Shown here: positions 5,589 to 41,279 of the stretch, piece after piece
Layout: every line of letters begins with the position of its first letter
How positions within the stretch are numbered: position 1 is the stretch's first letter
Source: a bacterium
Lineage (GTDB): Bacteria > Armatimonadota > Chthonomonadetes > Chthonomonadales > JAMCWF01
DNA: 64,000 bases
Direction: 5' to 3'
Assembly: GCA_021842405.1 (NCBI GenBank)
Contig: JAKBZR010000003.1
Location: 6,496-70,495 of the forward strand
Translations under genes and position numbers: made by a program
The notes under the pieces: generated by a model
Told to the model about the DNA's origin: nothing
What the model saw: only the letters and a program-made list of their open reading frames with translations
The model's database searches: none

Positions 5589-5693
5589 CGGCGGCGGTAG
5601 GTTTTGAGATGGACTGCGCCTTGCGAATGGTCGGCAGCATGGAAGCGCTGACCCTTCGTGATTGACGCGGTCATAAGGGAGGTAGGACTCATC

Positions 5694-8600
5694 TTGAAAA
5701 GATTGAAGCTCGTAAACGTCCTTCTGCTTACGCTGGTTTCGGCAGCCTTTGTTTTTCAAGGCCAGCAAACGGAGGCATCTCCGCGATTCAGCAAATTGAT
5801 CCCGGCAACGGGAAATTTCAATTTGTTCAGAAATCACCAGAAGCCGTTTATCGGCCCCGGCGTACAAATCCTCCCCAGCGATACTCTGCGCGCGCTGCGA
5901 CCCGGAAGGGCGATACAGGCCCCGGTGCAGACGATAAACCTGACGAAATCACCGCTTGCCGACGATAAAGACCCCTTCTGGACCAAAGATGAGCAGTACA
6001 TCTACTTCTCAAGCAATCGCATCAGCGCCTCCAATCCAGCCGCCGGCGCTCTTTACCATATCTACCGCATCAATGCCTCCGATGGCAGCGACCTCACTCA
6101 AATTTCAGGCATGAACACCTATGCCAACGACAATCAAACCAGCCCGGCCGCGAATTTGGGCGGGAATTACCTGGTTTACATTGATCGAGGCCCATCCGGA
6201 GTTGATATTGTATTGCGGAATTTGGTTTCCGATACCACCCAATCCTTGATTAAAAACAACAATCTGGCGCCCGCCTTCACCGATGTCAACCATCCTGAGT
6301 TTATGAGCGCCAGTGATGTGATGTTCAGCGGACAGGTCGGAGTGGGAACCCCATACCATCTCTATTCGGTGAATATTCAAACCGGTCAGGTTCCCCAGCT
6401 TACCACCGGCGCGGCGACCGATAAAGATCCCACCCTCGACCCGACCGGCACGCTCATCGCCTTTGATTCAAACCGATTGGCGAACGACGGCAGCACCGTT
6501 AATCCGGACGGCCATTTCGACATCTGGACGATGACAACCAACCCGGCCGCGCCCAACTTCACAAAATTAACCAATTTTGAGGTCGGCGGCGTTTACGCCA
6601 GCAATATTGATCCGGCCTGGAGCACCAACAAGGTTGATACCACAACCGGGCCGGATGGACAGCCGTTGGTCAACGGCCGCCAACTCATCGCCTTTTCTTC
6701 GACCCGTTACGATTCCACCGGGAACGGTCACGCCGACGCGGTGGGCGCCACCTATCACATCTACTGGATGCCGGCGATGCCGGAAGGGCCGACCAATCAG
6801 GCGCTCAAGCTGAACACCAACGATCCCAATAATAAGTACAACGATCTTCATCCGACATGGCCGCAGTTCATCAATACCTATCGGATTGCTTATCAATCGG
6901 ATCGCATTGATACCGATTTCCGATTTCCGCCGACCAGCCCGCCCGGCAGCCCGCAGGATCTGTTCGCCAGCACCATCGTGGACCTGCATGCGCCAACGCT
7001 GGTCGCCTATAACACGATCACAGACGAAATTGTTCATGTCTCACCGCGGTTGGCCACGCCCGGATCAACGGTCACCTTTACGGTGAAAGTGGCCGATTTT
7101 GAGACTGGCGTCAACGGGGTTTACATTCGGATTAAGAATCCGAACAGTAAGTATCAACAGAATTCCGGTGTTGAGCACAAGATGTTTATGGATACTCCGG
7201 TTTCGCCGGATGGTACCAATACGGTATATTGGCCCGAAGAATTCGATTGCCAACGGATATATGCCAGCCCCGGTCCGCAACAATACACCTATCATGATGT
7301 GCAATATATTGCCAGCATAGATGATTTCTACGCCTTTTCCGGTAGCTCGAGCCCGCCGGACCCGGCCTGGATAAAACTTACTCAAACCGGAACCGATGCA
7401 GACGGCAATGAGATCTGGTCGGGAAGCTGGGTTACGCCGCCACAGGAAACCGATTACATTATTGATGTGATCGCCTACGACAACGCGGTGGACACCTTTA
7501 ATCCCGTTAATAAAGAAAACTGGAAAATTTATGATAATATCTGGGGATTCAGCACTAAGCCGTTCGTTGCGTCGAAGGGGATTCTGTTTGTCAGCGACTA
7601 CTCCAGCGGACAAAAGTTCTTTCAAACAAAGCTTGGACTTAATACTTTGGTTAATGTCGGTTTTACTTTTTGGGGAACTGAAAGTTGGCTAACCGATTTT
7701 GACGTCCGTTTGTTGCCGAATGAATACTTTCCACCCAATAATGGAACGCCGGGACCGATTGACCTTGACCAGAATAGAAGTATCGGCGATACCCTGGGCG
7801 TTGATTCTTACGTTGATTCACTCAATGATGATGGGATTTATGTAGATGGCTATGCAGACCCATCATCTCAACAGTACAATATCTGGCGGATACAGTGCCG
7901 CGGGCCGATTCCCGATTCGGTGCTGGGTCAATACTTGCCCCATACCGAGCAGCAGCCGCCTGATACCATTGACGGTGAAACCACACCTCGAGCCGTTTTG
8001 GTAGCGCCGCGGTGCGTGATCTGGAATGCACCTTATGCTGGTGACCTCTGGACCGGGCCGGGAACGATCACCGATCTATCGACTCAAGCTCAACTGGCCG
8101 CGTTTATTGCGGCCGGCGGCCGTCTCTTCGTAAACGGTGAGGACGTCGGCTGGGCCTTAACTCAGGACGGCACCTTCGCAAACTCATTTTTCACCAATGA
8201 TTTGAAGGCCACATTTATTGCCGACACTTATAACGTTGGTACTTTATCGTATCTTTTTTCTGTCAATGCCCAAATAAAGGCTTTATTTATTGTCGATCCC
8301 CAAAACTTATTAGGGGCGCAGGGTGCTCCGAACCCAATTTCGCATGATCCCTGGCAGGGAACTTATAATGCCATTGCTCATGTCGACAATGTGCATAATT
8401 ATTATAATTATGCCAACAACCCGGCAACTTATGATCCGCCCGATTTGGTGAAACCATACCTGGTTGCAGGTACTGACCCTTTACATATACGCAATCTGGG
8501 AGCATTTAATGAATTATTCCCGGATCATGTAGGGGTAACCAACGGCTCGATCCTGGATTGTAACTATGGAGGGGAATCGACTACAGCCGCTTTATTACAC

Positions 8601-11252
8601 TGGTCAGATCCGACTACCGGCGCCGAGGTGGTCTACTGTCCGGCCGGGTTGGAAGCCTTTAATACCGACGCTTACATGGAGTACCATACCGGATCGGGGC
8701 CGGCGCCGATGGCGTTCCGCAACAAACGGGCCGAGATCATGCACAACATCATCTGCTGGCTGAGAACCGGAACCGTTTTCGGCACCATCCGTAACTCAAA
8801 CGGCGGCACTCCGATCGCAAACGCGCTGGTTCGGGTCTGGAATAGCTACGATAGCAACGGTAAGCCAATTATTGTAGGCACCGGGAGAACCGATGCGAAT
8901 GGAAACTATAGCATTGATGGGTTGCCGCCGGCACCGTATATCATTCAGGCGTTTGAGCCCGGGTTTACCTACCAGCATGCAACTGCCTTTTTGGTACACG
9001 GTGCTACTCGAACTGAGATGAGTATCCTGATGAGTGCCGCCCCGCCGGCCAGTCTGACCGGTAAGGTCACTCAAACCGATGGAACCACCCCAATCGCCGG
9101 GGCGGTGGTGACGGCGACCGATAACTCGGATCCGACCGGTAACACTAAAGTTACAGCGACCACTGGCACCGACGGTACCTACACCATCGCGCAGCTTCCA
9201 TCGCAGACGACTTATACCTTATCGGTAACGGATCCAAGCTACGGGACGGCCATCGCGATCAACTCGGGGAATACTCCGCTCGGCAGCATCTATCCGGTGC
9301 CGAACCCGAACGATCCCAATCAGGCTCAACGGGATACGGTGGTGCAATCGGGGAAGAGCTATACCGGCTTTGACTTCGAATTGAAGGCGATACCGGGCAG
9401 CCTCTCCGGGGTCGTTTCCGATAAGAACACGGGCGCCGGAATTTCAGGGGCCACCGTGACCGCCACCTTCGGCTCGGAGACTCAAACCGCCACGACCAGC
9501 TCGAACGGCAGCTACACCTTTAGCGCGCTCGATCCGGGAACTTGGTCGTTGGTCGCATCGGCCGCCGGCTACACGCCGAATTCACCGGCGGTGACGGCCA
9601 GCGTGGTCAGCAACCAGACGACAACCGGCATCAACATCCAGTTGTTACCATCGGTGCCTGGAAGCCTGTCTGGACTGGTGACCCGCTCCAATGATGGCTC
9701 ACCGCTGAGCGGCGTTACGATTACCATCGTATCCGGATCCGTACAGCAGACGGTGGTGACCGGCCCGGTGCAGACTTCGGGCGGGTACCAGTACAACTAC
9801 AAGTTCAGCAGCGTACCGTCAAACTCCACCTTTACCGTTACCGCAGCCCTCAGTGGATTTACGGCGGTGCCGGCGAGCCAGAGCGCATCGGTGACGCCGA
9901 GTACCGAGACGCAGAACATCAACTTCGTGATGAACCCGCTGCATACCTTCCCAGGACCGCTGACGTTGATCTCGGCGCCTTATGACTATTCCGGCACCGA
10001 TGTGGCGCAGTTGCTGGGCATTCAAAATACCAGCCGGTTTTACTTTATAGGATGGGGGAACAACCAGTACATCTACTATCCAACCGCACCGGTCAATGCA
10101 CTGCACTTGGGCAACGGCTACTTTATGAGCTATCAGTCCAACATTGCCCTGTCGGTACAAGGGGCGGCGGCGCCCACCGATCAGATATTTAGCTTGCCGC
10201 TTAAAGCCGGTTGGAACCTGATGGGCGATCCGTTCCCGTTCTCGATTGACTGGCTGAAGGTACAGGTTCAATACAACGGGCAAACGCTGAGCTTACTCGA
10301 CGCGCAGACGCAAGGGCTGATCGGCGCCGCATTATGGACCTATCAATCCGGCCAGTATCAGTTGGCCTTTACATTAGAGCCATGGCTTGGAGACTGGGTG
10401 CAAGCCTTCCAACCGGTCACTCTGCTGATAGACCCGGTGAATGACCGAATTAACCGCAGCGTTCCGCCGCCGACCACCCGCGCGGAGCTGGTAGCGCCAT
10501 CCACCGGCTGGGATCTCAACATTAGCGTCAGTTCCGGTAACGGCCTGAGCGACGGCGGCGTCTATATCGGCGAGAGCAGAGCCGCCAGCAATGGCTTTGA
10601 TCGATTCAAAGCTCAAAAGCCGCCGGCCATCGGTCAGCAGTATGTATACGCCTACATCAGCCATTCGGATTGGGGAGCGCACTCCGGCGATTACGGTGTG
10701 GATATCCGCTCTGAATCGGTGGCGCAAAAGCAATGGGATATCTCGGTTGAATCCAACACCGGTAATGCGCCGATCACATTACAATGGCCTGACGCAGCGC
10801 TAATTCCGCACGGGCAGGATATAATTTTAACCGATGAGCAGACCGGCACGACGAGGGATTTACGCAGCAGCTCCGGCTACACCTATCAGCCCGGCAGCGG
10901 AGCGGTCACCCGCAAGTTCACAATTAAGGTAGTGCCGGCAACCAGCGGCGATCTTAGGATCGTAAACCTGACCGCGCAGCCGCAGCCCGGGAGAAGCGAA
11001 GGGGTTGCCATCTCCTTCGACCTGACGGCAACCGCCAATGTAAATGTTAAGATACTGAACGGCGAAAGCCAGACGGTGCGGACACTGAACGTCGAGCAGA
11101 GCCGCGCGCCGGGCAACCAGCAGATCGTGTGGGATGGCCGGGATAATCAGGGACGTGCTCTGCCGTCCGGTATGTATATCATCGAGGTTCAAGCGATCGG
11201 CAACAATAGCGCTCAAGTGAAGGCGATTACACCGATCCTCTTGAATCGCTAA
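5694..11252 (+). CDS. Giant secreted protein with an N-terminal TolB-like PD40 beta-propeller, an unassigned central region, four CarboxypepD_reg-like repeats and the shared C-terminal module ending in a FlgD-Ig-like domain
   Basis: The ORF opens at GTG 5658. TTG 5694 is preferred as the start because the RBS AAGGGAGG lies 8 nt upstream and the N-terminus becomes MKRLKLVNVLLLTLVSAAFVFQG, a signal peptide. PD40-type repeats are visible (DKDPFWTKDEQYIYFSSNR, DKDPTLDPTGTLIAFDSNR, NIDPAWS..LIAFSSTR, DLHPTWP..RIAYQSDR). CarboxypepD_reg-like repeats are visible (GTIRNSNGGTPIANALVRV..TDANGNYSI, and others). The terminal motif is VWDGRDNQGRALPSGMYIIEV. Confidence 0.8.
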   Translation: MKRLKLVNVLLLTLVSAAFVFQGQQTEASPRFSKLIPATGNFNLFRNHQKPFIGPGVQILPSDTLRALRPGRAIQAPVQTINLTKSPLADDKDPFWTKDEQYIYFSSNRISASNPAAGALYHIYRINASDGSDLTQISGMNTYANDNQTSPAANLGGNYLVYIDRGPSGVDIVLRNLVSDTTQSLIKNNNLAPAFTDVNHPEFMSASDVMFSGQVGVGTPYHLYSVNIQTGQVPQLTTGAATDKDPTLDPTGTLIAFDSNRLANDGSTVNPDGHFDIWTMTTNPAAPNFTKLTNFEVGGVYASNIDPAWSTNKVDTTTGPDGQPLVNGRQLIAFSSTRYDSTGNGHADAVGATYHIYWMPAMPEGPTNQALKLNTNDPNNKYNDLHPTWPQFINTYRIAYQSDRIDTDFRFPPTSPPGSPQDLFASTIVDLHAPTLVAYNTITDEIVHVSPRLATPGSTVTFTVKVADFETGVNGVYIRIKNPNSKYQQNSGVEHKMFMDTPVSPDGTNTVYWPEEFDCQRIYASPGPQQYTYHDVQYIASIDDFYAFSGSSSPPDPAWIKLTQTGTDADGNEIWSGSWVTPPQETDYIIDVIAYDNAVDTFNPVNKENWKIYDNIWGFSTKPFVASKGILFVSDYSSGQKFFQTKLGLNTLVNVGFTFWGTESWLTDFDVRLLPNEYFPPNNGTPGPIDLDQNRSIGDTLGVDSYVDSLNDDGIYVDGYADPSSQQYNIWRIQCRGPIPDSVLGQYLPHTEQQPPDTIDGETTPRAVLVAPRCVIWNAPYAGDLWTGPGTITDLSTQAQLAAFIAAGGRLFVNGEDVGWALTQDGTFANSFFTNDLKATFIADTYNVGTLSYLFSVNAQIKALFIVDPQNLLGAQGAPNPISHDPWQGTYNAIAHVDNVHNYYNYANNPATYDPPDLVKPYLVAGTDPLHIRNLGAFNELFPDHVGVTNGSILDCNYGGESTTAALLHWSDPTTGAEVVYCPAGLEAFNTDAYMEYHTGSGPAPMAFRNKRAEIMHNIICWLRTGTVFGTIRNSNGGTPIANALVRVWNSYDSNGKPIIVGTGRTDANGNYSIDGLPPAPYIIQAFEPGFTYQHATAFLVHGATRTEMSILMSAAPPASLTGKVTQTDGTTPIAGAVVTATDNSDPTGNTKVTATTGTDGTYTIAQLPSQTTYTLSVTDPSYGTAIAINSGNTPLGSIYPVPNPNDPNQAQRDTVVQSGKSYTGFDFELKAIPGSLSGVVSDKNTGAGISGATVTATFGSETQTATTSSNGSYTFSALDPGTWSLVASAAGYTPNSPAVTASVVSNQTTTGINIQLLPSVPGSLSGLVTRSNDGSPLSGVTITIVSGSVQQTVVTGPVQTSGGYQYNYKFSSVPSNSTFTVTAALSGFTAVPASQSASVTPSTETQNINFVMNPLHTFPGPLTLISAPYDYSGTDVAQLLGIQNTSRFYFIGWGNNQYIYYPTAPVNALHLGNGYFMSYQSNIALSVQGAAAPTDQIFSLPLKAGWNLMGDPFPFSIDWLKVQVQYNGQTLSLLDAQTQGLIGAALWTYQSGQYQLAFTLEPWLGDWVQAFQPVTLLIDPVNDRINRSVPPPTTRAELVAPSTGWDLNISVSSGNGLSDGGVYIGESRAASNGFDRFKAQKPPAIGQQYVYAYISHSDWGAHSGDYGVDIRSESVAQKQWDISVESNTGNAPITLQWPDAALIPHGQDIILTDEQTGTTRDLRSSSGYTYQPGSGAVTRKFTIKVVPATSGDLRIVNLTAQPQPGRSEGVAISFDLTATANVNVKILNGESQTVRTLNVEQSRAPGNQQIVWDGRDNQGRALPSGMYIIEVQAIGNNSAQVKAITPILLNR

Positions 11253-11401
11253 AATAACGATTAAGGAAGCAACTCGACGCTCTTCGGTAGGGGTGTCGTG
11301 ATCGGGAACGAAAATTGTCAGGTATTAGTGACGTTTGCCGGAAGGTGTGTCCGGCCAGCATAAATAATTGCCACACTGTCACTGAGGGAGGACATATCAG
11401 A

Positions 11402-13378
11402 GTGAAAATGACCAGAAAGAGTATGGGTAGTTGGTTACGGCGCCTGGTGCAAAAAGCTGTACCGCTACTCCTGCCCCTAAGCGGACTGGTCGTGCCGGCA
11501 GCGGCAAATGCGCAAGCGGCGCAAGGATCAGTTCAGACGGTGATCATTATTGACTTTCAAAATAAGTCGGGCACCGGAGCTGCATTAGCAAAGTTTGCGA
11601 CCGATGCAGTGGCAGTGGAATTAGCCAATTCCGGACGTTTTGAGGTTTTAAAACGGAATGAGGTTACCCGACAGGCGAAACAGCTCGGGATGGTACCGCC
11701 GTACGATAATATCGCGTTGACCAAGCTAGCCCAGGCGCTTGCTGCCAATGATATTATCACCGGTGAGATTGCCTTCGCCGATATCTATACGAAAAAAGGC
11801 CCTAAAACGGCAAGGGTCGGTCTGCTGGTCAAAATGAGATCGGGCGCTTCATCCGATCTCATAAATGGAGCGGCTGCAGTGGGTACCGCTACGGCGCCGC
11901 CCGGTGGAACCGATGACCTGACGCTTTTGCAGGAAGCGGTCAGCAACGCGGCTTATGAGGCGGTTCGCAGTATGCTCGCCTACAACCTTCCGGAAGGCAC
12001 CGTTTTGAACACGGTTGGATCTCCGCCCAACATCACTATCCTCATCAATCGAGGTTCACGGGATGGTGTTAAAGAGGGTATGGAGATGATCGTGCTCCGA
12101 AATAATATTAAGGTCGGCACGATCCGCGTCACCACCGTATATCCAACCGATTCGGAGGCCTCCGTAGTTAACTATACGATGGGTATCTCACCGGAGGACC
12201 ACGTCAGAGCGATTTTTATGATGCCGACCTTTACCGCCAATGAAGAAGTTGCTGGGCCGAAACCAGCGCAGCGGAAAGGGGCTATTTTCAGCAATATTGG
12301 TAAGATCGTGCTGGCCCTGCTGCTGGGCGTTGTTATCGTGGCGGCTGCCGGCGGCCATAACACCTCTGTAACTGGCGTGACTGCGCAGGCCGCATTGGAC
12401 GGTGCCACCCCGATCGTGCAGATGCAGTGGAGAGACAACGCGTTTGGAAGCGGCACGGTGCTGGAATATCATATTTGGCGGGTACCCGGCAATGGGTTTG
12501 CCCGAACGGCCGACCCGGTTGCAACCGCGCCGGCCGGCAGCCCGCGCTATACTGATTATCCGGTAGGCGCGCCGCAACAGCCGATCGGTTTCTGGGATGG
12601 AACTAAGCAATTCTTGCAGGTGCCATTGAGCACCACCAGCGGCAGCACCTCATCCGGCACATCGGCTTCCTTGGTAACTCCGAAGGCGGGCGCGGTGCCT
12701 GGGTTTACCGTCGGGCAAACTTATACCTATCAGATATCGGCGGTTATCCGCCGTCAATTGATAACCGGTACCGGGGGCGGTGGAACCGGCACTGGAATCG
12801 GCACCGGAGGGGGAGGCGGTACGGGAACTGGAATTGGCACCGGTACGGGGACTGGTGGCGGTACCGGGACGACTACGAGCGGCACTGAAGATTTAGAGAC
12901 GGATCCGGTCAGCTCGGGGCCGGTGACACCGCTTAATATGCCGGTTTTGGTCAGTCCAACCGATGGCGCAACGAACGTACCGGCTACGGCGGCGGTATTC
13001 ACTTGGTTGAGCAGAACCGGCGCCGATACCTTCCAGGTGGAGGTATCTCAAGATCCGACGTTTACCAATCCATCCTTGATCATTCAAACCCGCGTTCTTT
13101 CCACCAGTCCTTTTGCAGATGGAGTGGCGCAAACGAGCCCGCCGATCAATCTTTCGAACCTGCCGGCGGTCAAGTCGTTTCTTAACGCAACGGCGGGGTC
13201 CAATCCGCAGCCGCCGCAGCTTTACTGGAGGGTGGGCGCCCGGCATGCGGCCGATCAACCGGGGCCGGCAGACTGGCTGCAGCCGATGAACATTAAGGCG
13301 GGCGATAACAACTTCCGGTTTATATACAGCACGATTCGCGGATTTAAGCCGGCATTGCTGCCGCCGCCGGCGCCGTAG
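11402..13378 (+). CDS. Envelope protein with a signal peptide, an LpoB/CsgG/TolB-N-like alpha/beta domain, a small beta-barrel domain, one internal TM helix, an FN3/Ig-like domain, a Gly-Thr linker and a second Ig-like domain
   Basis: The ORF opens at 11315. GTG 11402 lies 9 nt after the RBS GAGGGAGGA, and ATG 11408 is an alternative. The signal peptide is LLLPLSGLVVPAAANAQA. The alpha/beta domain begins VIIIDFQNKSGTGAALAKFATDAVAVELANSGRFEVL. The TM segment is IGKIVLALLLGVVIVAAAGG. Confidence 0.6.
   Translation: MKMTRKSMGSWLRRLVQKAVPLLLPLSGLVVPAAANAQAAQGSVQTVIIIDFQNKSGTGAALAKFATDAVAVELANSGRFEVLKRNEVTRQAKQLGMVPPYDNIALTKLAQALAANDIITGEIAFADIYTKKGPKTARVGLLVKMRSGASSDLINGAAAVGTATAPPGGTDDLTLLQEAVSNAAYEAVRSMLAYNLPEGTVLNTVGSPPNITILINRGSRDGVKEGMEMIVLRNNIKVGTIRVTTVYPTDSEASVVNYTMGISPEDHVRAIFMMPTFTANEEVAGPKPAQRKGAIFSNIGKIVLALLLGVVIVAAAGGHNTSVTGVTAQAALDGATPIVQMQWRDNAFGSGTVLEYHIWRVPGNGFARTADPVATAPAGSPRYTDYPVGAPQQPIGFWDGTKQFLQVPLSTTSGSTSSGTSASLVTPKAGAVPGFTVGQTYTYQISAVIRRQLITGTGGGGTGTGIGTGGGGGTGTGIGTGTGTGGGTGTTTSGTEDLETDPVSSGPVTPLNMPVLVSPTDGATNVPATAAVFTWLSRTGADTFQVEVSQDPTFTNPSLIIQTRVLSTSPFADGVAQTSPPINLSNLPAVKSFLNATAGSNPQPPQLYWRVGARHAADQPGPADWLQPMNIKAGDNNFRFIYSTIRGFKPALLPPPAP
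12764..12880 (+). repeat. In-frame Gly/Thr-rich low-complexity tract containing an internal duplication (GGGTGTGIGTG x2)
   Basis: Codons were read directly: TGTGGGGTGTGIGTGGGGGTGTGIGTGTGTGGGTGTTTSGT. The tract is built from GGN/ACN hexanucleotide units. Confidence 0.8.
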
Positions 13379-13390
13379 CGACCCGATAAC

Positions 13391-13423
13391 GCATCCGGGT
13401 GATTGGTTCATTCACCCGGATGC
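13391..13423 (+). terminator. Stem-loop with a 12-bp perfect stem GCATCCGGGTGA/TCACCCGGATGC and a 9-nt loop
   Basis: The stem-loop lies 13 nt downstream of the stop at 13378. No T-tract follows, so it may act as an attenuator or processing site rather than a full terminator. Confidence 0.45.
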
Positions 13424-13518
13424 GAAGATAATGACGACCAATCGGGTGGACCGATTTCGACGATCAGGAAGAATTGTCTAATTATGAATTCTAGGCGTGG
13501 GTTTGGGGAGGAGTCCGA

Positions 13519-16500
13519 GTGATGAGGCTTCGATACAACGTACCACTTAAAATTGCACTCTGTGCGGCGCTCATGGCGTTCTTGGGGAATGTATCCGCTG
13601 CCGCCGTTCCAACTGGCGGGCGCGCGGCGGCGCCGTCTTTTGTGCCGGGTCAAATTCTTATCACCGTGCCGGCGAACACTAGCGCCGCTCAGGTTCAGTC
13701 CCTGGCTCAATCGGCCGGCGCAACCGTCAAAGAATCGCTGGGCACGGTAGACAAGGATAACTCCTGGGCATGTTACCTATTGCAGTTAACGTTAGCATCC
13801 CCAACTTCATCCGACACTCTCACTGCGGTTCAAAACTTGAAGAGCAACCCGCTCGTTCACTTCGCCGGGCCGGATAAATTATTATATCCAACCCAGGTAC
13901 CGGCCGGAATCACACCCAACGACCCGCTTTATACCTATCAGTGGGACATGCGCTTAATTAACATGCCGGCCGCCTGGCTATTGCAACAGGGCAGCTCCAA
14001 TGTAACCGTATGCGTATTGGATGATGGAGTCGATGTTACCCATCCCGAATTTGCCGGGCGCGTGTTGACCGGCTATAACGCGGCGGATGGCAGCACTAAT
14101 GTAATGCCCGATACCCCTACATCTACCTTACCGATTGATGAAACTTCACACGGAACTCATGTGGCTGGAATTGCGATGGCGACCGGTAACAATAATATTG
14201 GAATTGCCGGCGTTGCTATGCAAAATGTTAAATTACTACCAGTAAAAGCCGTTGATGCCAATCTTCTTTTTCCCGAAGATTACTTAGTGAAAGCGATGCA
14301 GTTCATCAATGCACAAAAGCCAACCGTAGTAAACATGAGCTTGGGTGGGCCGGCTACATCTGATACCTACGATCCAACTGATCCATTTGCTCAAGATATT
14401 ATTAAGGCGGAATCGGAGGGAATTGTCGTTGTCATCGCGGCAGGGAACAACTATCTATTAGGAAACCCTCCTTTTTATCCTGCTAATACGCCTGGGGTTG
14501 TTTGTGTCACTTCGTGCGGACCCAATAAGGAGCATGCCGTCTATTCGGAAGTGCGTCCTTACTCAACCATCTGTGCCCCCGGTGGCGATGATCCAACCTT
14601 TTCAAACCCATTAACTTTGCAAATTACAAGCTGCTGGCAGGGCGGTATTTATGGTCAGGAGCAGGGAACCTCGATGGCGGCGCCCCACGTCGCAGGAGCT
14701 ATCGCACTTTTACTTTCTGTTCCGGGAGTGACCCCGGATCAGGCCATCAGCGCCATTGAATCAACCGCCGATACGGTCGGGCAAACGGTTCCAAATCCGA
14801 CCTACGGCTACGGCGTGCTGGATGTGTATGCGGCACTTTTGAAGGTCAGCGTATCAACTCTTATCATATCACCGCAGGGTACCGGAGGGCTTGCTTCCAG
14901 TTCGGGGACTTTTACCACCCCGCAACCGGTGGATACTTTAAATCCAATGTTGAAATTTCAGGTCAGCCTGGTTCCGCTGTCCTCGCTTTCCATAACGGTT
15001 GATGGAAATCCGGTTCCAAGTACCACCATTCAGAATAGCGTCATATCGGGCACGCCCGGAGAGCGATATATCATCGGGTTTCACCAGGTGCTTAATCCCG
15101 GAAGCCATACCGTCGTGATCACCGGTGTAAACCCGACAACCGGACAGACCGCCACCGATACCCGGACCTTTACCGTTTCGCCGCACGTCATGCCGGCGGG
15201 ACGATCGTTGGTTTCTATTCCCTATTTACAAGCCGGTGCAATCCCCCAAACCTACTTCGGGTTGACCTTCAGGCTGGCGCGCTGGGAATCGAGCAGCGCT
15301 CAATATGCCTTTTACAATGGGAGCGGGCAGCAAGATCCAAACGCATCCTTCAACCCGCCCAGCAACGCTCCGTTTCAAAACGTAACCAACCAGCCGGTAG
15401 CGCCGCTCGGACTCGGATACTTTTTAGATGCTCAGAATGCGACCCCCATTTTAACGACCGGAGTGGGAGAGGATTCACAGCCGATATCCATACCCCTACA
15501 ACCGGGCTGGAACATGATCGGTGATCCGATGGACTTTGCGGTTTCCTGGAATGCCCTACTAGTTACAGATAATGGGGTAACCATGCCGATCCAAGACGCG
15601 GCAAGCAAGGGCTATATCAATGCCAGCCTATACAGTTTCGTGAACGGTCAATACACCTTCGATACATTGCCGGCCGGTTCGCTGCAGCCCTGGCTTGGGA
15701 ATTGGGTTTTCGTTGATCCAACCTATGCGCCAAACGGGCTCACATTGGTGGTGCCGCCGACGCCGACCGCTACAACCTCCCGGGCCGCAGCGGTGACCGG
15801 ACCCAGCCTAGGCTCAAGCGGATGGTACGTACAACTGCAGGCTACCGCCGGCTCGATGGCGGATAGCTACAATTTCATCGGTGAGAGCAGCCGGGCAATC
15901 AACGGTCCGGATCAATTGAAAGTGCCCAAGCCGCCCATGCTGTCTCCGTTCGTGACCGTCGAAATTCAGCACAATGATTGGGGCAGCCAATCCGGAGTAT
16001 ATGCGGAAGACATTCGATCACGCAGCATCGTTCCACAGGCGTGGAATGTGCTGGTGAATACCGATAAAACCGATGTTCCGGTGACTTTAAGTTGGTTGCA
16101 CATACAGAGCGTACCGAGAAATATCCGCCTGACATTGAAGGATTTGGCGACCGGCCAGACTTACGATATGAGAACACGAAGCTCAGTAACCTTTAACTCC
16201 GGAAATGCCAAGCAGGCTCACGAATACGTAATCCGGTCAGTTACTCAACCGCTGGGCGCTCATCTGATCATATCGGGCCTCAGCGTGGCGCCAACGCGAG
16301 GTGGTGGTTATGGCATCAACTACAGCATCTCTGAGAATGCGACGGTTGAGGTGACGATCGTTTCGGCAAGCGGTAACGTGGTGGCAACGGTCGGATCATC
16401 GAGAGCGATAACGGCGGGTAATACGACGTTGGTTTGGAATGGCCGCGACCAGAAAGGGACCTCGGTTCCCAGCGGAGCCTACATTGCCAAGGTCCATGCG

Positions 16501-16560
16501 ATCGTGCAATCTTCGGATCAAAGTGCAAACGCGGTGGTGCCATTCATTGTCATACGATAG
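13519..16560 (+). CDS. Secreted subtilisin-family (S8) serine peptidase with an I9-like propeptide, fused to the shared C-terminal module
   Basis: The start is GTG 13519 or ATG 13522, after the RBS GGGGAGGAG. The signal peptide is ALCAALMAFLGNVSAAA. The catalytic triad motifs are VCVLDDGVD, SHGTHVAGIA and GTSMAAPHVAGAIALLLS. The C-terminus carries VWNGRDQKGTSVPSGAYIAKV. Confidence 0.88.
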   Translation: MMRLRYNVPLKIALCAALMAFLGNVSAAAVPTGGRAAAPSFVPGQILITVPANTSAAQVQSLAQSAGATVKESLGTVDKDNSWACYLLQLTLASPTSSDTLTAVQNLKSNPLVHFAGPDKLLYPTQVPAGITPNDPLYTYQWDMRLINMPAAWLLQQGSSNVTVCVLDDGVDVTHPEFAGRVLTGYNAADGSTNVMPDTPTSTLPIDETSHGTHVAGIAMATGNNNIGIAGVAMQNVKLLPVKAVDANLLFPEDYLVKAMQFINAQKPTVVNMSLGGPATSDTYDPTDPFAQDIIKAESEGIVVVIAAGNNYLLGNPPFYPANTPGVVCVTSCGPNKEHAVYSEVRPYSTICAPGGDDPTFSNPLTLQITSCWQGGIYGQEQGTSMAAPHVAGAIALLLSVPGVTPDQAISAIESTADTVGQTVPNPTYGYGVLDVYAALLKVSVSTLIISPQGTGGLASSSGTFTTPQPVDTLNPMLKFQVSLVPLSSLSITVDGNPVPSTTIQNSVISGTPGERYIIGFHQVLNPGSHTVVITGVNPTTGQTATDTRTFTVSPHVMPAGRSLVSIPYLQAGAIPQTYFGLTFRLARWESSSAQYAFYNGSGQQDPNASFNPPSNAPFQNVTNQPVAPLGLGYFLDAQNATPILTTGVGEDSQPISIPLQPGWNMIGDPMDFAVSWNALLVTDNGVTMPIQDAASKGYINASLYSFVNGQYTFDTLPAGSLQPWLGNWVFVDPTYAPNGLTLVVPPTPTATTSRAAAVTGPSLGSSGWYVQLQATAGSMADSYNFIGESSRAINGPDQLKVPKPPMLSPFVTVEIQHNDWGSQSGVYAEDIRSRSIVPQAWNVLVNTDKTDVPVTLSWLHIQSVPRNIRLTLKDLATGQTYDMRTRSSVTFNSGNAKQAHEYVIRSVTQPLGAHLIISGLSVAPTRGGGYGINYSISENATVEVTIVSASGNVVATVGSSRAITAGNTTLVWNGRDQKGTSVPSGAYIAKVHAIVQSSDQSANAVVPFIVIR

Positions 16561-16686
16561 TGATCGTTTAATCGCTGATCAGCGAGGCGTATGCCGTTTA
16601 AGGCCGCTAAGTATAAGGGGCCGGCGAGTGAGTCCCATAAGCGGCAGCGGAGAATGCGTTCAACGTTTGAGGGAGGATCAGTTTCG

Positions 16687-19551
16687 ATGAGTTTCAATCG
16701 AATGCGTAGGTTGAGCTGGATTACAGGTACTGCCCTATTCGTGATAGGGTTAACCATAGGGCTGGAGGCTCGTTCTGCTGCCCAATCATCCATATCAAAC
16801 GCCTATATCAGTGTAACAACCGCCACCGCGCCCCCCAATCAATTTACCGCTGTAACAACCGGTGGCGATCCGGTCACAACGGCTGACGACGGACTCGTCC
16901 TTCTTCATTCGGTCATCATATCATTAAGGATTGACGGAGGAGCTCAAGCCGGTGGCAGCGATGTGATATTAGGCGCGCCCAACAGCGTGAGCGTGGTCAA
17001 CAATGAGATGAAGGTGCAGTGGCTCCAACCGATGACCGTTACCACGACAAGCGGCGGCGGGACGGGTACTGGAACCGGCACCGGAACGGGAACCGGCACC
17101 GGTACAGGAACTGGAACTGGAACTGGAACAACTACAACCACGACGACCGGCAACCTAGTGGTCAATCTGGACGTTAAGCTCCTGCATGACACGATCCGGT
17201 GGGGTTTCAGCATTGTAAACGATGATACGCTCCCTCATTCGGTCGGGATTCGATTGGTGGAAGGGTATAACGGCGCCGGCCTGCCGGTGACGATCGGCAC
17301 TACGGTAGGATATGGAGGCGCGCCGGTTCGCACCAACAATCACAGCACCATTCACAATGAGGTTGATTACGTAGGTCCACAAGTTCCTACTTTCTGGTCA
17401 ACCAATGTCCCGGTATCACAAAACGGAGCAAGCGGGCAGTTTGTGATACGGGGATTAACGGCCACCAGCTCGGCCAGCGAATCGGTATGGGCGTCCGACA
17501 ACACGAGGCCCGATGAATTTACGCTGGCGCCGGTGAGCTTATTTGCAGCCGCCCCTTGGGGCGTTACCATTGATCCGACTCAGCCGATTGATACGACGGG
17601 AACCACCGTCCCGCTCGATCCGGCGGTCGCGCTCTACTACAACCCGGTTGAGTTGGTTCCTGGCGATACCCGCACGGTGGTAAACTATCTCGGATTGGGA
17701 GTGGCGTCGGAAAACTTTGACCAGTCTATGGTGGAGGCGGTGGAAGGGCCGGCTTACTTAAACTACAACCAGCAGATTGCCGACCTATATAATGCTCCGC
17801 CGTACCAATATCATGTTGCGCCGTTGACCCTGCCTACTCAACCCAACTTGCCGATTGTGATAACACCTTCCAGCGCTACTCCGCCCATTGATAATCCGAT
17901 AACGATTGAAGTATCGGTCCAAAATCTAACAACAATCGCGTTGGATAATTACTCGGCCACCCTCAACCTACCGCAGAATTCCGGCCTGGAGTTGGCGCCG
18001 GGACAGACGGCAACCCAGGGCACGAACTCCAGCATCTCCATATCGCCGGGCGCGGAGAAATCGTTTTCCTGGCAGTTGCTACCCAATGTCAGTAACCCGC
18101 AGAGCGGTATCATCACCTATTATGTGACGGTCAGCACCGGCATTGCGGGCGGTAAGAGCGTAACCCGGACGATGGAGATACCGGCCATTCCCAGCAGCCA
18201 AAAATTCCCATCCGGCCTGCAACTGATCTCGTTGCCATTCGTTTTCTCAAATCCGCAGCCATCGTTTGCATTTAGCTTGGATCCAGCCAATTTTATGCTG
18301 TTGGATTGGAACGGAACGGCCGGCTCTTATGAGGCGGTCAGCCAAATACAACCAGGGCTGGGATACTGGCTGCAGTTGAATCAAGGCCAGCAGATCAGCA
18401 TAACCGGAGCATCGCCGGTGCCCAATCAAACCGGCACGAGCTCTCAATTCACCCTCACCTTGCCGCAAGGGTGGTCGTTAATTGGTGACCCATACCTGTT
18501 CAATATCCGATGGGGCGATATGCAGGTGCTCAACCCGGCTACATTGCAGATACTGCCGCTTAATGTGGCCAGCGACGGCAACCACAACTGGATCAGCCCG
18601 ACGATCTATTATTTTGATCAAAGCGAGCACGATTACGCTTTTTCGCAAGATCTCGGCTACTTGATGCAACCCTATGCGGGGTTCTGGGTATACAGCTTCT
18701 TGCCGAACTTAAAGCTGATTTTCCCGCCGATAGACGAACCGGGAGCGACCGTCATAACCAGAAGCGCTTTCGCTCAGCAGCCGATCGGTGTGAACAATTG
18801 GCGGTTGCAGATCTCGGCCACCTCAGCCAATACGAACGACACCCATAACTATATCGGCGTTTCAAACCAGGTAACCGGAAATTATAACCCGCTCGACGCC
18901 TTAAAGCCCCCGGCATACGGGAGATCGGTGTCACTCGCACTCGTTCATACCGATTGGGGAGATCACAACGGCGCATACGCGCAAGACCTTCGCTCACCCA
19001 ACGATCCCAACAAAAAGTGGACGATACGGGTTACTTCACCGGAGCCAAATCAAAATGTAACCATTACCTGGCCGAACATAGCGCAAGTGCCCAAACAGTA
19101 TGAGCTCACCCTCACTGATCCGACCGATGGCTCGACTCGATCCATGCGAACCACTTCTTCGATTGTGGTTAATACCGGATCCTCGGGCACCCGAGATCTC
19201 ACCATCACCGCGAAATCGGTGCACCTTGGTGAAGCCTTGTTGATTTCACAATTGGATATACAAACAACGGGCGGTCGTGCGACGGGCGCGCCGCAAACGG
19301 CCAACATTACCTATACCGTAAGCCGGGCGGCATCGTACTCTCGGATTACGATCCGTTCCGCATCCGGGCAAGTGATCCGGCTACTTTCAACCGGTCGCGC
19401 GGTGCAGGCTGGGGTTAATACGGTGGTCTGGGATCTCAGAGACTCAAAGGGAATCTCGGTTCCATCCGGCAGTTATCTCGTTTCGGTGGTAGTGGCTGAC
19501 AGCCAGAGCCAGCAAGCGCGCATGGTTATGCCCTATCTGGTCATACGATAA
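16687..19551 (+). CDS. Secreted protein with an unassigned N-terminal region, a (Gly-Thr)12 linker and the shared C-terminal module
   Basis: The ORF opens at 16591. ATG 16687 lies 9 nt after the RBS GAGGGAGGA and gives MSFNRMRRLSWITGTALFVIGLTIG, a signal or anchor sequence. The C-terminal ~450 aa are collinear with the C-termini of the ORFs ending at 11252 and 16560. Confidence 0.7.
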   Translation: MSFNRMRRLSWITGTALFVIGLTIGLEARSAAQSSISNAYISVTTATAPPNQFTAVTTGGDPVTTADDGLVLLHSVIISLRIDGGAQAGGSDVILGAPNSVSVVNNEMKVQWLQPMTVTTTSGGGTGTGTGTGTGTGTGTGTGTGTGTTTTTTTGNLVVNLDVKLLHDTIRWGFSIVNDDTLPHSVGIRLVEGYNGAGLPVTIGTTVGYGGAPVRTNNHSTIHNEVDYVGPQVPTFWSTNVPVSQNGASGQFVIRGLTATSSASESVWASDNTRPDEFTLAPVSLFAAAPWGVTIDPTQPIDTTGTTVPLDPAVALYYNPVELVPGDTRTVVNYLGLGVASENFDQSMVEAVEGPAYLNYNQQIADLYNAPPYQYHVAPLTLPTQPNLPIVITPSSATPPIDNPITIEVSVQNLTTIALDNYSATLNLPQNSGLELAPGQTATQGTNSSISISPGAEKSFSWQLLPNVSNPQSGIITYYVTVSTGIAGGKSVTRTMEIPAIPSSQKFPSGLQLISLPFVFSNPQPSFAFSLDPANFMLLDWNGTAGSYEAVSQIQPGLGYWLQLNQGQQISITGASPVPNQTGTSSQFTLTLPQGWSLIGDPYLFNIRWGDMQVLNPATLQILPLNVASDGNHNWISPTIYYFDQSEHDYAFSQDLGYLMQPYAGFWVYSFLPNLKLIFPPIDEPGATVITRSAFAQQPIGVNNWRLQISATSANTNDTHNYIGVSNQVTGNYNPLDALKPPAYGRSVSLALVHTDWGDHNGAYAQDLRSPNDPNKKWTIRVTSPEPNQNVTITWPNIAQVPKQYELTLTDPTDGSTRSMRTTSSIVVNTGSSGTRDLTITAKSVHLGEALLISQLDIQTTGGRATGAPQTANITYTVSRAASYSRITIRSASGQVIRLLSTGRAVQAGVNTVVWDLRDSKGISVPSGSYLVSVVVADSQSQQARMVMPYLVIR
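17059..17148 (+). repeat. (Gly-Thr)12 followed by Thr6, encoded by GGN-ACN hexanucleotide repeats including three perfect GGAACT units
   Basis: Codons were read directly from 17059: ggg acg ggt act gga acc ggc acc gga acg gga acc ggc acc ggt aca gga act gga act gga act gga aca, followed by six Thr codons. Confidence 0.9.
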
Positions 19552-19596: not shown

Positions 19597-19621
19597 CCGA
19601 AACACGGTGAGGAAGCGAACA

Positions 19622-20278
19622 ATGAAGGCAAGAAAAATGAGCAAAAATTCACTATGGGTGTTTGGTATCAGCGCACTATTAATGGTCGCGATGATACCAG
19701 GCGCTTCAGCAAAAATTAACGCCGATCACGCACTTCTATTACAAGAGATGTCAAGGCCATCATTGCTGCTGTTCCCGTTCGATTCGAGCGATCCCAGCAC
19801 CAGCGCCTATGCTGAATTGGCAACCGATGTCGCTTGGTCTCGACTGGTATTGAGCGGCAAGTACCAACCGGTTCGTTTCTATCGCTACCTGCCACCGATC
19901 GCCCGCGCGCTACAGGATCAGCAGCTCGGCGACCAAGATGTTTCAGCGCCATTTTCAGAGGATAATACAAAAGGCATTAGGCTGGCGAAAATCGCTGATT
20001 ACGATTATATTTTGCTGGGGTCAATTGACAGCTACGATTATAACGCGAACACTCACCAAGTTAGCATTACGATGAGCGGTCGGTTGCTCAAAGTTTCGGG
20101 CGGCCGAATCATTAAGAGCGTGACCTTGAGCGGAGGGTATAAAAACCCCAACGGCTCTGAAAACAGCATTGCCGATCACGCCATTCGGACTACCGCCGAC
20201 AAACTGATGACTGGCCTGGTGGGCACCATTAGAAATGCACCGATCCCATCACCGCATGCTAAGAACGCAAAAAAGTAA
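19622..20278 (+). CDS. Small secreted or periplasmic alpha/beta-domain protein, paralogous in pattern to the N-terminal domain of the 11402-13378 product
   Basis: ATG 19622 lies about 6 nt after GGTGAGGAAG. The signal peptide is ISALLMVAMIPGASA, with no lipobox Cys. The pattern LLLFPFDSS..YAELATDVAWSRLVLSGKYQPV...ILLGSIDSY mirrors VIIIDFQNKS..FATDAVAVELANSGRFEVL...IITGEIAFA. Confidence 0.55.
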   Translation: MKARKMSKNSLWVFGISALLMVAMIPGASAKINADHALLLQEMSRPSLLLFPFDSSDPSTSAYAELATDVAWSRLVLSGKYQPVRFYRYLPPIARALQDQQLGDQDVSAPFSEDNTKGIRLAKIADYDYILLGSIDSYDYNANTHQVSITMSGRLLKVSGGRIIKSVTLSGGYKNPNGSENSIADHAIRTTADKLMTGLVGTIRNAPIPSPHAKNAKK

Positions 20279-20474: not shown

Positions 20475-22460
20475 ATGAAACATTCTCATTCGACCACATT
20501 ATTTTTCTGCTTGTTATTGAGTGCCTTTCCGGCAATCGCTTATGCTTTCAGCACCATTTCTCTATCGGTGGATCGCCCGGTTGTGTTGGCGGACGGAAAA
20601 AGCTCAGCGGTAATCAGCGCAACCGTTCGAGATTCAAGCGGAAACTACGTGCCGGATGGCATTGAGGTTGATTTTCATACCACATTGGGAACGCTGGAAC
20701 CGTTGACTCAAGCGGGCAACACGGGGGCCATTTCCGATGTACAGGCAACCACGATGGGTGGGGTAGCGAGAGTTCGGATCACCAGCAACCAAACCGGAGA
20801 CGCGCAAATCTTAGTTACATCGCCGGGTGCGGGTGCGGCCACCATCCGAATTCGTTTTACCAACAGCACACAAGACACCTATCAAGGTAACGCGTTCGTT
20901 GCGGTGCGGAGCAATCACGAGCTGATGTACAGCGTCACCGATCGGACGATTGAGGCCAGCTCACCCCATAGCGGCGCCTATTTAAGCTTCCGCAACATTC
21001 AAGTTTATGCCGATCAAATTCAGCTCGATTGCAATCAAACCATTGTAAGGGCGAGGGGCGGGGTGCGCTTAAAGGTTGCCGACCATACTATCTCGACCGA
21101 TCGCCTCTATTATAATCTTATGACAAATGACGGTTATGCAGTGGTTGCCAAGGGGCGCGCGCTACGCCCGGTCCAACTTAAGGGTGAAAGCATGAAGCAA
21201 ACGCTCATGCCGGGGGGCATCCCACCGATCTACCTGAAAATGGCCGACCTATCGGATAGCAACCTGGTGATCGCCGCACGCCAAATTCTCTTTTTCCCCA
21301 ATGATAAACTTCAATTTACCTCGCCGCGATTTTATCAGCAGGGCCAAATGCTGGTATCAATGCCCTATTACGTGCTCAGTCTCGGCTCGAACCACCTGTT
21401 CTCCGAACAGTTTGTATCATTGGGCTCTCAGGGGATCGGGGTGGATATTCCCTTTTATTTTCAGCTTTCTCCCAGCAAAACCGGAATTTTCTATCTTCGT
21501 CGAGGAGATCAGCGCCAATCCAGCATCTACACGACCCAAGCCGGTTGGTCGTTGGACATGGTGCAAAAATACTCATCATTGCGCGGCGAAAGGTATCAGG
21601 GGCAGTTCGGAATAAACGGTATAACACGCAGCGACTGGGGGGTTGATTGGTCACACAGTGAGCAGTTCAGTCCAACCTCGGTCGGCTCCATCTATCTCGA
21701 TTTCCCTCAGCATCGTAATCTATTTCTGACCAGCAATTACAACGATCAGATTGGCACCTATCGCCTGGGCGCCAATGTCATCATGAACCAGAGCCTCAAC
21801 GGCATCCCGATTAACAATCAGCAGGGAACCGTCTACTTTGAGGGATTGCCGCGACCGATGGGAAAGACCGGCTATTTTTACACGATCGGCACCTCTTCTA
21901 ATATCAGCCGCACCGCGGAGGCGGGGATTCGACAAGACATTTTTACCCAATCCATATCAATGCGTGCGAACAGCTCCCCATTCAAGCTTGATCACGATAC
22001 CACGCTCACCCACTCGTTCAGCATTGGGGAGGTTATGGCCAGTGGCGCCAGCGGTGGAACCTCCCTGCTCTCTTCGCTCTCGTTGACGCACACCTTCGGG
22101 GCAACTGCCAATTTGCAGCTCAGCTATGATTTCACCCACCAACCGTATACCATTTATGGGGAGGGGCAGCATCGGATCAGCGCTTCTTTCTTTGCATCGG
22201 GAAGAAACAAATGGTATCTCACCCTATACGCCAGCGATATGCTGGATGCGCCCAACAGCAGTCTCCTCAGCGATTTCAGCTACTCGATCGCACCGAAGTG
22301 GCGGGTTGCCTTAATGACGACGATGCAACAATACGGCGCCGCCACCTACAAGGATTTCGACTTAGGTCTGGCTTATGATATCGGGGGCCGCGATGTTATC
22401 TTATCATGGTCAAGCTTGGAGCACCGCATTTCCTTACGGCTTGGCGCTGCCCAATTTTAA
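20475..22460 (+). CDS. Outer-membrane beta-barrel protein with an N-terminal Big_1 (invasin/intimin-type Ig) domain and an OstA/LptD-N-like domain
   Basis: The signal peptide is LLLSAFPAIAYA. The Big_1-like segment reads ISLSVDRPVVLADGKSSAVISATVRDSSGNYVPDG. An OstA-like pattern is present (IQVYADQIQLDCNQTIVRARGGVRLKVADHTISTDRLYYNLMTNDGYA). The remainder is long and rich in alternating residues, ending ...LRLGAAQF. A terminal Phe is typical of OM barrels. Confidence 0.55.
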   Translation: MKHSHSTTLFFCLLLSAFPAIAYAFSTISLSVDRPVVLADGKSSAVISATVRDSSGNYVPDGIEVDFHTTLGTLEPLTQAGNTGAISDVQATTMGGVARVRITSNQTGDAQILVTSPGAGAATIRIRFTNSTQDTYQGNAFVAVRSNHELMYSVTDRTIEASSPHSGAYLSFRNIQVYADQIQLDCNQTIVRARGGVRLKVADHTISTDRLYYNLMTNDGYAVVAKGRALRPVQLKGESMKQTLMPGGIPPIYLKMADLSDSNLVIAARQILFFPNDKLQFTSPRFYQQGQMLVSMPYYVLSLGSNHLFSEQFVSLGSQGIGVDIPFYFQLSPSKTGIFYLRRGDQRQSSIYTTQAGWSLDMVQKYSSLRGERYQGQFGINGITRSDWGVDWSHSEQFSPTSVGSIYLDFPQHRNLFLTSNYNDQIGTYRLGANVIMNQSLNGIPINNQQGTVYFEGLPRPMGKTGYFYTIGTSSNISRTAEAGIRQDIFTQSISMRANSSPFKLDHDTTLTHSFSIGEVMASGASGGTSLLSSLSLTHTFGATANLQLSYDFTHQPYTIYGEGQHRISASFFASGRNKWYLTLYASDMLDAPNSSLLSDFSYSIAPKWRVALMTTMQQYGAATYKDFDLGLAYDIGGRDVILSWSSLEHRISLRLGAAQF

Positions 22461-33688: not shown

Positions 33689-34498
33689 TCATTGCTGGCA
33701 AAAGTAATACCACTTCTTAGGAACTGAAACATCCCACATCGCACTATCGGGCTCCCACTTGGCATGCCCATCAGCAAATGCGTAATCACGCCCATTATTA
33801 TGGGGCGGCAGCCAATCGGGGTAGCAAACCGGACAGATGTACGAATTATCGGGATTTGCGGGGGGCGACGTCGGGGTGCAGTTCCAACCATTTCCGTTCC
33901 AGCCCTGAATTTCAACGACCCTTTCCGTATCGCCTTTATCCCAGAAAACGATTAAGGACGATGGCTGAGGAATCTCGGATAGGGTAAGAGCCGGACTATA
34001 GATTCCAAGTCGCCAATTGTGATCGCCGACATCGCTGTTGTAAATGTAGGAATTGCTGTCGGTATTGGAGGGTGGATTCCATGCACTGTCTCGGGTGGCC
34101 GGGCAGGTCATCAACTGCTCGTTCTTGATGTAGGGCTGCATCTCATAGGCCCAGTTGAGGCCGTACAAATTGGGATTTGTTTTGGGTCCGGTATACCAAC
34201 CGACCATCCCCGGCGACGTTACCCCGGTGCACATTCCGTTTTGACATGGCCAACAACCGGTGCAGGCGCCGTTGTCAAAGGATTGCCACTCGCTCATAAA
34301 TCGCTGGTCGTAGTCCTGAAGGTACATCTGGGATGCCAGAATGATCTGTTTAAGGTTACTTACGCAGCTTATTTGCTGTGCTTTCTCCCGCGCTTGAGCG
34401 AAGACGGGGAATAAGATGGCGGCTAGTATCGCGATTATGGCGATAACTACAAGCAACTCGATGAGGGTGAATCCTCTCTTGTCACAATGCCATTTCAT
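33689..34498 (-). CDS. Prepilin-type N-terminal cleavage/methylation domain protein of the DUF1559 / H-X9-DG class
   Basis: The N-terminus is [46 protein letters not shown]. The C-terminal [13 protein letters not shown] reads H-X9-DG. An AAAGGAGA RBS is present. Confidence 0.85.
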
Positions 34499-40878: not shown

Positions 40879-41279
40879 AATTCGAGGTACTCCCTTCAAA
40901 CTTTTCCTTGAGTTTAGAGTATAACATAAACAGCAGACTTCGCCGTTATCAATCGAATGCGGTTGCTGTGACCGAGCCACCTGTCTTGATTGTTTTGCCC
41001 CGGATGAGGCAGTCTGCTGCTGGTGCTGAATAAAAGAATGTTCAGGTGTTGAGAAGAGGTTGGCGCGCTGCAGATAGCGATCATTAATTTAATAGAATGC
41101 CGTTATTGTTCATTACCGAACCGGGGGCTCTAACCCTATTACTTTTAGTCTTGGGAAAAAAGATCGGTAGTCAAGTATACCTAACTCACTTACCTTGACG
41201 CAATTTGAAGTGATTTGTTCGATTCGGCAGCCCAGCGTTTTAATATATTCTTACCACATCTTTAAGAGGACACCGCAAT

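Follow-up and report, generated by a model that had tools for sequence, protein, structure and literature searches.

Why should three neighbouring proteins whose N-terminal parts have nothing in common share one and the same C-terminal end? The question is raised by three exported proteins, here called W1, W2 and W3, of a bacterium of the Chthonomonadales (Armatimonadota; lineage JAMCWF01). Their genes lie in a stretch of 64,000 nucleotides (contig JAKBZR010000003.1, positions 6,496 to 70,495, of assembly GCA_021842405.1), which we analysed as a whole and refer to as the window. An earlier note, written from the letters and translations alone, had described the shared end as a module of about 440-460 amino acids (aa) and had proposed that it is a sorting or anchoring signal. 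We found that the module is a conserved C-terminal device rather than the product of a chance duplication. It consists of three domains (A, B and C), ends almost always in the same residue, and is encoded in a gene cluster that recurs across the phylum. We tentatively suggest that it attaches or assembles the three proteins at the cell envelope.

W1 (5658-11252, 1864 aa), W2 (13519-16560, 1013 aa) and W3 (16591-19551, 986 aa) are encoded on the forward strand, and Sec signal peptides were assigned to all three by eye from the translations. According to Pfam, W1 consists of a PD40/TolB-like propeller, a central region, four CarboxypepD_reg domains and the module, and its passenger part also partially matches TolB in NCBIfam. 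W2 is an exported subtilase with a fervidolysin-type prodomain and a Peptidase_S8 domain in front of the module; public data hold a protein nearly identical to it (P0005). The W3 passenger belongs to no Pfam family, and its N-terminal half, which carries a Gly-Thr repeat, was without a match in a profile search of the PDB. The passengers are thus those that the earlier note had recognised, and comparison of the N-terminal parts with each other gave no relationship (BLASTP, E = 0.38). The database names of module proteins say little (‘carboxypeptidase regulatory-like domain-containing protein’, ‘hypothetical’ or ‘subtilisin family’). The central region of W1 (6933-8795, residues ~430-1050) is large and well conserved, contains the motifs ILFVSDY..GQKFF and GGRLF..GQDV.WAL, and had no match in Pfam or in the PDB profile search. 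By eye it resembles class I glutamine-amidotransferase-like or ThuA-type folds.

The C-terminal modules of the three proteins are collinear. They occupy nucleotides 9933-11249 in W1, 15175-16557 in W2 and 18205-19548 in W3 (439, 461 and 448 aa), and the open reading frames (ORFs) end at 11252, 16560 and 19551, as had been noted. Pairwise identity of the modules is 32-33%, 75 alignment columns are invariant, and the modules of W1 and W3 match each other with an E value of 4e-57 in BLASTP. The motifs listed in the earlier note are present, with a few corrections: W3 has TL rather than PL before GWS and PY rather than PW, while W1 has VYIG rather than NYIG. The three termini PILLNR (W1), PFIVIR (W2) and PYLVIR (W3) had been read correctly.

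We modelled the module with AlphaFold2 on the basis of an alignment of 64 sequences. The model has a predicted local distance difference test (pLDDT) score of 93.6 and a predicted template modelling (pTM) score of 0.84, whereas an alignment of three sequences reached a pLDDT of only 51. It shows three all-beta domains, with one short linker of low confidence: domain A comprises residues 1 to ~170, domain B residues ~190-335 and domain C residues 343-437. Because the pTM is high, the model suggests that A-B-C is a packed unit rather than a string of beads. Separate hidden Markov models (HMMs) for the domains located A, B and C in W1, W2 and W3 and in no other protein of the window. In W1, domain A is a beta-sandwich of ~170 aa at 9933-10439 (sub-HMM E = 3e-57; modelled strands at residues 4-166 with pLDDT >94), domain B is a beta-sandwich of ~150 aa at 10500-10952 (2e-48; strands at residues 192-335), and domain C extends from 10953 to 11252, where PILLNR is followed by the stop codon. 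The corresponding positions are 15175-15762, 15814-16260 and 16264-16557 in W2, and 18190-18732, 18790-19233 and 19237-19548 in W3.

We found no description of domain families A and B in the libraries and papers searched. The earlier note could not place the ~350 aa upstream of domain C in any family, and the searches gave the same result: 15 homologues scanned against Pfam-A gave no match even with the limit relaxed to E <= 1, there was no match in NCBIfam, and no significant match in sequence and profile searches of the PDB. Nor are A and B related to each other according to hhalign. Invariant residues of domain A, many of them Trp, Tyr or Gly, include W94, G98, P100, Y142 and W155. A Foldseek search with the whole model returned only generic beta-sandwich proteins with template modelling scores of 0.13-0.24, among them PorU, PorZ, GH2 domains, ScpA and Vpr. 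Vpr was the top match, and no wording on strand exchange was found in the paper on Vpr fibrils.

Domain C could be assigned to a family. The last 65-70 aa of the modules match Pfam FlgD_ig with 46.7, 35.9 and 39.5 bits in W1, W2 and W3, respectively (cut-off 27), in line with the earlier note's comparison of the last part with FlgD-Ig. The gathering cut-off was passed by 15 of the 15 homologues scanned, and solved FlgD structures were matched as well (2.7e-7 for W1). The family name does not assign a function here: W1, W2 and W3 are not flagellar hook-cap proteins, and the Ig-like domain (PF13860) is internal in FlgD, whereas it forms the free C-terminal end in the module. This end is strongly conserved. 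Of 149 copies (116 full modules plus 33 taken from genomic loci), 127 have Arg as their final residue, even though the paralogue lineages are only ~30% identical. Further conserved charged residues of the module are D207, D257, D301, R311 and R327. The consensus of the terminus is R-x-[VI]-x-P-h-h-h-x-R (h, hydrophobic), and a terminal Lys was seen only in relatives of the type found in the Fibrobacterota-Chlorobiota-Bacteroidota (FCB) group.

The earlier note had also likened domain C to the C-terminal domains (CTDs) by which proteins are sorted in the T9SS (type IX secretion system). This comparison stands in part. Like a type A CTD, domain C is a beta-sandwich (~80-100 aa) that forms the very end of proteins exported by Sec, has a FlgD_ig-like core (...WDGRD..G..VPSG.Y...) and carries a nearly invariant basic residue at or near its end. 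In the account of type A CTDs in PMC10994853, a basic residue near the C-terminus is almost invariant and functionally important. Furthermore, three relatives (L019 from the Calditrichia, and P0079 and P0148, whose lineage is unassigned) have the same A-B pair followed, at the position of C, by a canonical-looking FCB-type T9SS tail (NPFNP...KMxLLK) that matches PF18962 or CHU_C near threshold. In contrast to the type A CTDs, domain C ends with Arg, not Lys, as its very last residue, and its scores stay below the cut-offs of the T9SS models. Domain C belongs to FlgD_ig but lies outside the curated T9SS sorting-domain families, with which it probably shares ancestry.

To describe the distribution of the module, we took the best 150 matches of an exhaustive HMMER search of cluster representatives and re-scored them with the module HMM. 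The module was present in 132 of the 150 representatives, always at the extreme C-terminus and nearly always at full length to the last residue. The passengers in the re-scored set were of the W1 type in 80 cases, of the W2 type in 13 and of the W3 type in 20; eight were of other types and ten were fragments. In total, 113 of the 122 non-fragment proteins had one of the same three passenger types. Moreover, the lineage of the module agreed with the lineage of the passenger in 106 of 107 cases, which implies that the triplication is old and that the three copies have been maintained separately. A simple local duplication, which the earlier note had named as a possible outcome, is ruled out, because the module is widespread beyond the three genes of the window and the terminus is kept in orthologues. 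These results also contradict the idea that the full module is a tag on unrelated cargos; what remains of that idea applies to domain A alone and to rare A-B-C and A-B-A variants elsewhere. The other outcome that had been foreseen, a module composed of characterised domains with their machinery elsewhere in the genome, is excluded only in part: the module as a whole does not correspond to characterised domains, and for the machinery the search covered 37 ORFs of the window and the 10 kb upstream.

The gene neighbourhood is conserved as well. When one genome per species was scanned, 24 loci emerged. Ten of these, and also locus L001 from an organism closely related to that of the window (88% identity), have the same gene order, either complete or ended by a contig edge. 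The full order is rpsA, coaE, W1, a gene for a long LpoB-like protein (600-850 aa), W2, W3, a gene for a short LpoB-like protein (~240 aa) and a gene for a barrel-like protein (~660-710 aa in the loci that contain all of it). W1 orthologues were found in 11 loci, and the long LpoB-like protein is encoded in 11 of the 11 cluster loci. These loci span the Fimbriimonadia, Chthonomonadales, WS1 and unclassified Armatimonadota. The order is noteworthy because Fimbriimonas ginsengisoli and Chthonomonas calidirosea, which represent two of these classes, otherwise have almost no homologous regions or synteny (PMC4072686). If our interpretation of the module is right, the survival of an intact six-gene cluster despite the near absence of conserved gene order would point to an important envelope function. 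The cluster is undescribed in the libraries and papers searched. One locus was found in the complete chromosome OZ251990.1, in a scan limited to two motifs. A locus from WS1 (L011, 6233-20741) contains W1, the long LpoB-like gene, two more module proteins and the start of the short LpoB-like gene; its second module protein has no BLASTP similarity to the subtilase part of W2 and is preceded by an extra gap of ~1.2 kb. A scan for promoters and terminators gave a signal no better than chance.

Domain A has a wider distribution than the full module. On its own, it is the last domain of unrelated proteins in other Armatimonadota and on one contig of the Planctomycetota. These proteins include sedolisins, a subtilase with CarboxypepD_reg, proteins with fn3, an RCC1 propeller or CHB_HEX_C, and a giant protein of more than 3500 aa, and most of them have a clear hydrophobic, signal-like segment at the N-terminus. 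Individual genomes can have several A-terminated proteins; in a metagenome-assembled genome of the Capsulimonadaceae, a motif-limited scan found five on three contigs. Variants with the order A-B-A were found in P0117, P0130, P0143 and L013. Two observations tie domain A to the cluster. Firstly, relatives of a sedolisin-type peptidase encoded in the window carry a C-terminal domain A in two metagenome-assembled genomes of other Armatimonadota (L015, 1183-4989, 5e-142; L017, 3-2372, 1e-50). This peptidase (2906-5344, forward strand; Pfam Pro-kuma_activ) lies between coaE and W1 and is itself without the module. It is also module-free in the close relative, and no sedolisin is found at that position in the other cluster loci. 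Secondly, a homologue of the barrel-like protein (1e-64) is encoded directly after an A-terminated giant protein in locus L014.

Candidate partner genes inside the cluster had been overlooked in the earlier note. The long LpoB-like protein (11315-13378, forward strand) starts with a signal peptide, which is followed by an LpoB-like alpha/beta domain and a TsaP/FlgT-like barrel; a hydrophobic segment then leads on to fn3-like regions and a Gly-Thr repeat. Its true start is probably near 11402, because a protein of 658 aa has been called elsewhere. In Pfam it matches LpoB with 19.3 bits, under the cut-off of 22.3, and MreC weakly. The short LpoB-like protein (19607-20278, forward strand) is exported, has 223 aa and is a paralogue of the N-terminal domain of the long one (HMM cross-matches of 1e-8 to 1e-9); it also matches HfaB weakly in NCBIfam. 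The barrel candidate (20475-22460, forward strand, 661 aa) combines Big_1 (39.1 bits) with an OstA-like region (OstA_2, 16.6 bits against a cut-off of 21.2 in Pfam) and a beta-rich C-terminal half. It ends in ...GAAQF, with the terminal Phe of the beta-signal of outer-membrane proteins (OMPs). Its gene follows the cluster in six loci. Over 194 residues the protein weakly matches LptD (7omm), while LptD was not matched in Pfam or NCBIfam. It would be unusual for the invasin-like Big_1 to be fused to an LptD-like protein. The Gly-Thr-rich linkers of the long LpoB-like protein and of W3, which could be length-variable or O-glycosylated, are encoded by imperfect tandem DNA repeats (12764-12871 and 17058-17129) whose periods are 6-36 bases.

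From these observations we infer a location at the envelope, a role in anchoring or assembly rather than mere spacing, and the identity of the candidate partners. Because the phylum has conserved both the block and its gene cluster, attachment or assembly at the cell envelope seems to us the most likely role of the module, and we put it forward as a tentative proposal. A-B-C would be a rigid unit of three beta-sandwiches by which three Sec-exported proteins are fixed at a single shared place in the envelope. Domain C would be a divergent relative of the FlgD_ig-type CTDs that direct T9SS sorting in the FCB group, and its free C-terminal strand, P-h-h-h-x-Arg, may be the element that is recognised or that locks. 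Domain A may work on its own as a C-terminal domain for targeting or binding, one that is also used by further exported enzymes of the phylum. The likely partners would be encoded in the same cluster, namely the two LpoB/TsaP-like periplasmic proteins and the LptD-like outer-membrane barrel.

Several results weigh against this proposal. The matches of the candidate partners are all weak, with E values from 2e-4 to 0.012 in the PDB profile searches (LpoB 2e-4 and then TsaP 0.012 for the long LpoB-like protein; LptD 0.0058 for the barrel), and the 661-aa protein could be the housekeeping LptD, tied to the cluster by synteny only. The generic Foldseek matches mean that the fold gives no pointer to function. 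Domain C was restricted to the cluster proteins and L019 when the window and the 24 loci (~400 kb) were scanned. With only three proteins per sampled genome region, rather than many cargos as in T9SS, it is unlike a general sorting tag. Furthermore, against TIGR04183 (cut-off 23) domain C scored 13.4 bits in W2 and 15.1 bits in W3, with no match in W1; against PF18962 (Por_Secre_tail, cut-off 27) it scored 12.8 bits; and the NPFNP motif is not present in it. As the earlier note had stated, no T9SS, sortase, exosortase or autotransporter families were found, here among 37 scanned ORFs of the window, and no other secretion or sorting machinery was found in these ORFs or in the 10 kb upstream. 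T9SS is not known in Armatimonadota; in their accounts of its distribution, PMC10994853 and PMC12398890 describe it as confined to the Bacteroidota or the FCB group. The genome paper of F. ginsengisoli lists only the type II and type IV secretion systems and the twin-arginine translocation (Tat) and Sec pathways (PMC4072686). Our literature search found no paper linking Armatimonadetes with FlgD or T9SS cargo.

Other explanations have to be weighed against envelope attachment. The most serious of them, though still unlikely, is that the module has no targeting role, with A, B and C being ordinary Ig-like spacer or stabilising domains that were inherited with three old paralogous exoproteins, and with the terminal Arg merely stabilising the last strand of the FlgD_ig fold. 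The purely generic Foldseek matches, the widespread occurrence of FlgD_ig as an Ig-like domain and the persistence of the module on the same three passengers would all be expected in that case. However, a fixed unit of 440 aa on three unrelated passengers across a phylum is rare for spacer domains, and the end of the protein is fixed exactly after the Arg. The A-B-A variants, the recurrence of domain A at the end of many exported proteins that are unrelated and the pTM indicative of a packed unit argue in the same direction. We also consider it unlikely that the module is a true secretion signal, with domain C and the terminal Arg being read by a dedicated outer-membrane export route and perhaps cleaved off afterwards. 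Such a route could be a T9SS-like system that has escaped recognition, or it could be formed by the cluster's own LptD-like barrel and LpoB/TsaP-like proteins. Domain C is homologous to the FlgD_ig-type T9SS tails and takes the same position as the canonical tail in FCB-type relatives, it has the C-terminal basic residue of type A CTDs, and the conservation of the three genes goes together with that of a barrel and of ring-type proteins. Against this route, no LptD-type barrel is known to export proteins, domain C remains below the T9SS cut-offs, the window lacks T9SS components, and there would be only three substrates. Moreover, no T9SS is reported for F. ginsengisoli, and type II secretion genes, which are abundant in the phylum, need no C-terminal signal (PMC4072686).

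Binding to a substrate is a further possibility, which we regard as quite improbable. Here domain A, perhaps together with B, would be a module for binding carbohydrates or polymers and would keep secreted hydrolases attached to an insoluble substrate. This would account for the many invariant Trp, Tyr and Gly residues of domain A, for its place at the end of peptidases and glycan-related proteins, and for the GH2 sugar-binding domains, Ig domains and GbpA in the Foldseek list. Yet W1 and W3 are without a recognisable hydrolase domain, domain A had no sequence match to any carbohydrate-binding module in Pfam or the PDB, and the cluster is surrounded by genes for housekeeping and the envelope (rpsA, coaE, murB) and includes LpoB-like and LptD-like proteins. 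The most far-reaching explanation is that Armatimonadota and WS1 possess an unrecognised envelope system, and it appears to us the least probable of those considered. In such a system, a T9SS-CTD-like signal with terminal Arg would deliver or lock the three proteins to the outer membrane. The signal domain would be common with T9SS but the machinery would be different, consisting of the LptD-like barrel and two LpoB/TsaP-like ring proteins of the cluster, and domain A would serve many exoenzymes as a second, phylum-specific targeting domain.

Some known systems provide useful comparisons for envelope attachment. The S-layer homology (SLH) triplets of S-layer proteins and S-layer-associated enzymes are a shared terminal anchoring module on unrelated functional parts. 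By analogy with these, A-B-C is one conserved terminal module on unrelated functional parts that would be destined for the same envelope layer; in contrast to them, it is all-beta, and no SLH or known anchoring domain was detected in it by Pfam. In the long LpoB-like protein a TsaP-like barrel comes after the LpoB-like domain, which recalls the ring-forming FlgT/TsaP, and the 661-aa protein resembles the barrel of the LptD/LptE barrel-plug pair in its OstA-like region, beta-rich C-terminal half and terminal Phe, although the underlying matches are weak. No FlgT/TsaP or LptD protein is known to handle proteins with a C-terminal Ig-like domain.

Other types of C-terminal signal were considered and rejected. 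The module is not an autotransporter, since the model gives three soluble beta-sandwiches and no autotransporter family of Pfam or NCBIfam matches it. It does not end in a sortase or exosortase signal (LPXTG, PEP-CTERM), as its end is a beta-strand, P-h-h-h-x-R, without a hydrophobic helix. An OMP beta-signal does not apply to the module either, because its last residue is Arg and not aromatic.

Several other genes of the window were recorded. A cysteine peptidase of the clostripain family (C11) is encoded at 39553-40980 on the reverse strand, ~20 kb from the module genes and outside the conserved cluster. Cleavage after Arg is typical of the clostripain family, which shares its clan with the T9SS sortase PorU, so that the gene is a curiosity in view of the terminal Arg of the module. 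Three large proteins (25170-27482, 30972-33350 and 45684-49307) weakly match Glyco_hydro_42 or Cellulase, which is consistent with a carbohydrate-scavenging lifestyle. Two proteins with a prepilin-type N-terminal methylation motif, one of them also with DUF1559, resemble type II secretion or pseudopilin proteins (33689-34498, reverse strand; 58970-59851, forward strand). At 27531-29812 on the reverse strand, a ParA/MinD-like ATPase (AAA_31) is encoded next to a Schlafen AlbA_2 protein that also carries HATPase_c_4. Finally, a protein of 636 aa (43708-45621, reverse strand) has a very strong match to DUF6785 (2e-108) and a further one to DUF6784, two uncharacterised families.

Armatimonadota are a widespread but little-studied phylum of diderm bacteria, whose envelope and secretion biology is essentially unexplored. 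If our interpretation is correct, two undescribed domain families, A and B, and a distinctive Arg-ending C-terminal domain of the FlgD_ig/T9SS type would be defined for these organisms. The module would then offer a handle for predicting their surface proteome. If it is indeed an anchoring or export device, it would also bear on the origin of T9SS-type sorting domains, and on whether these domains are older than the T9SS machinery itself.

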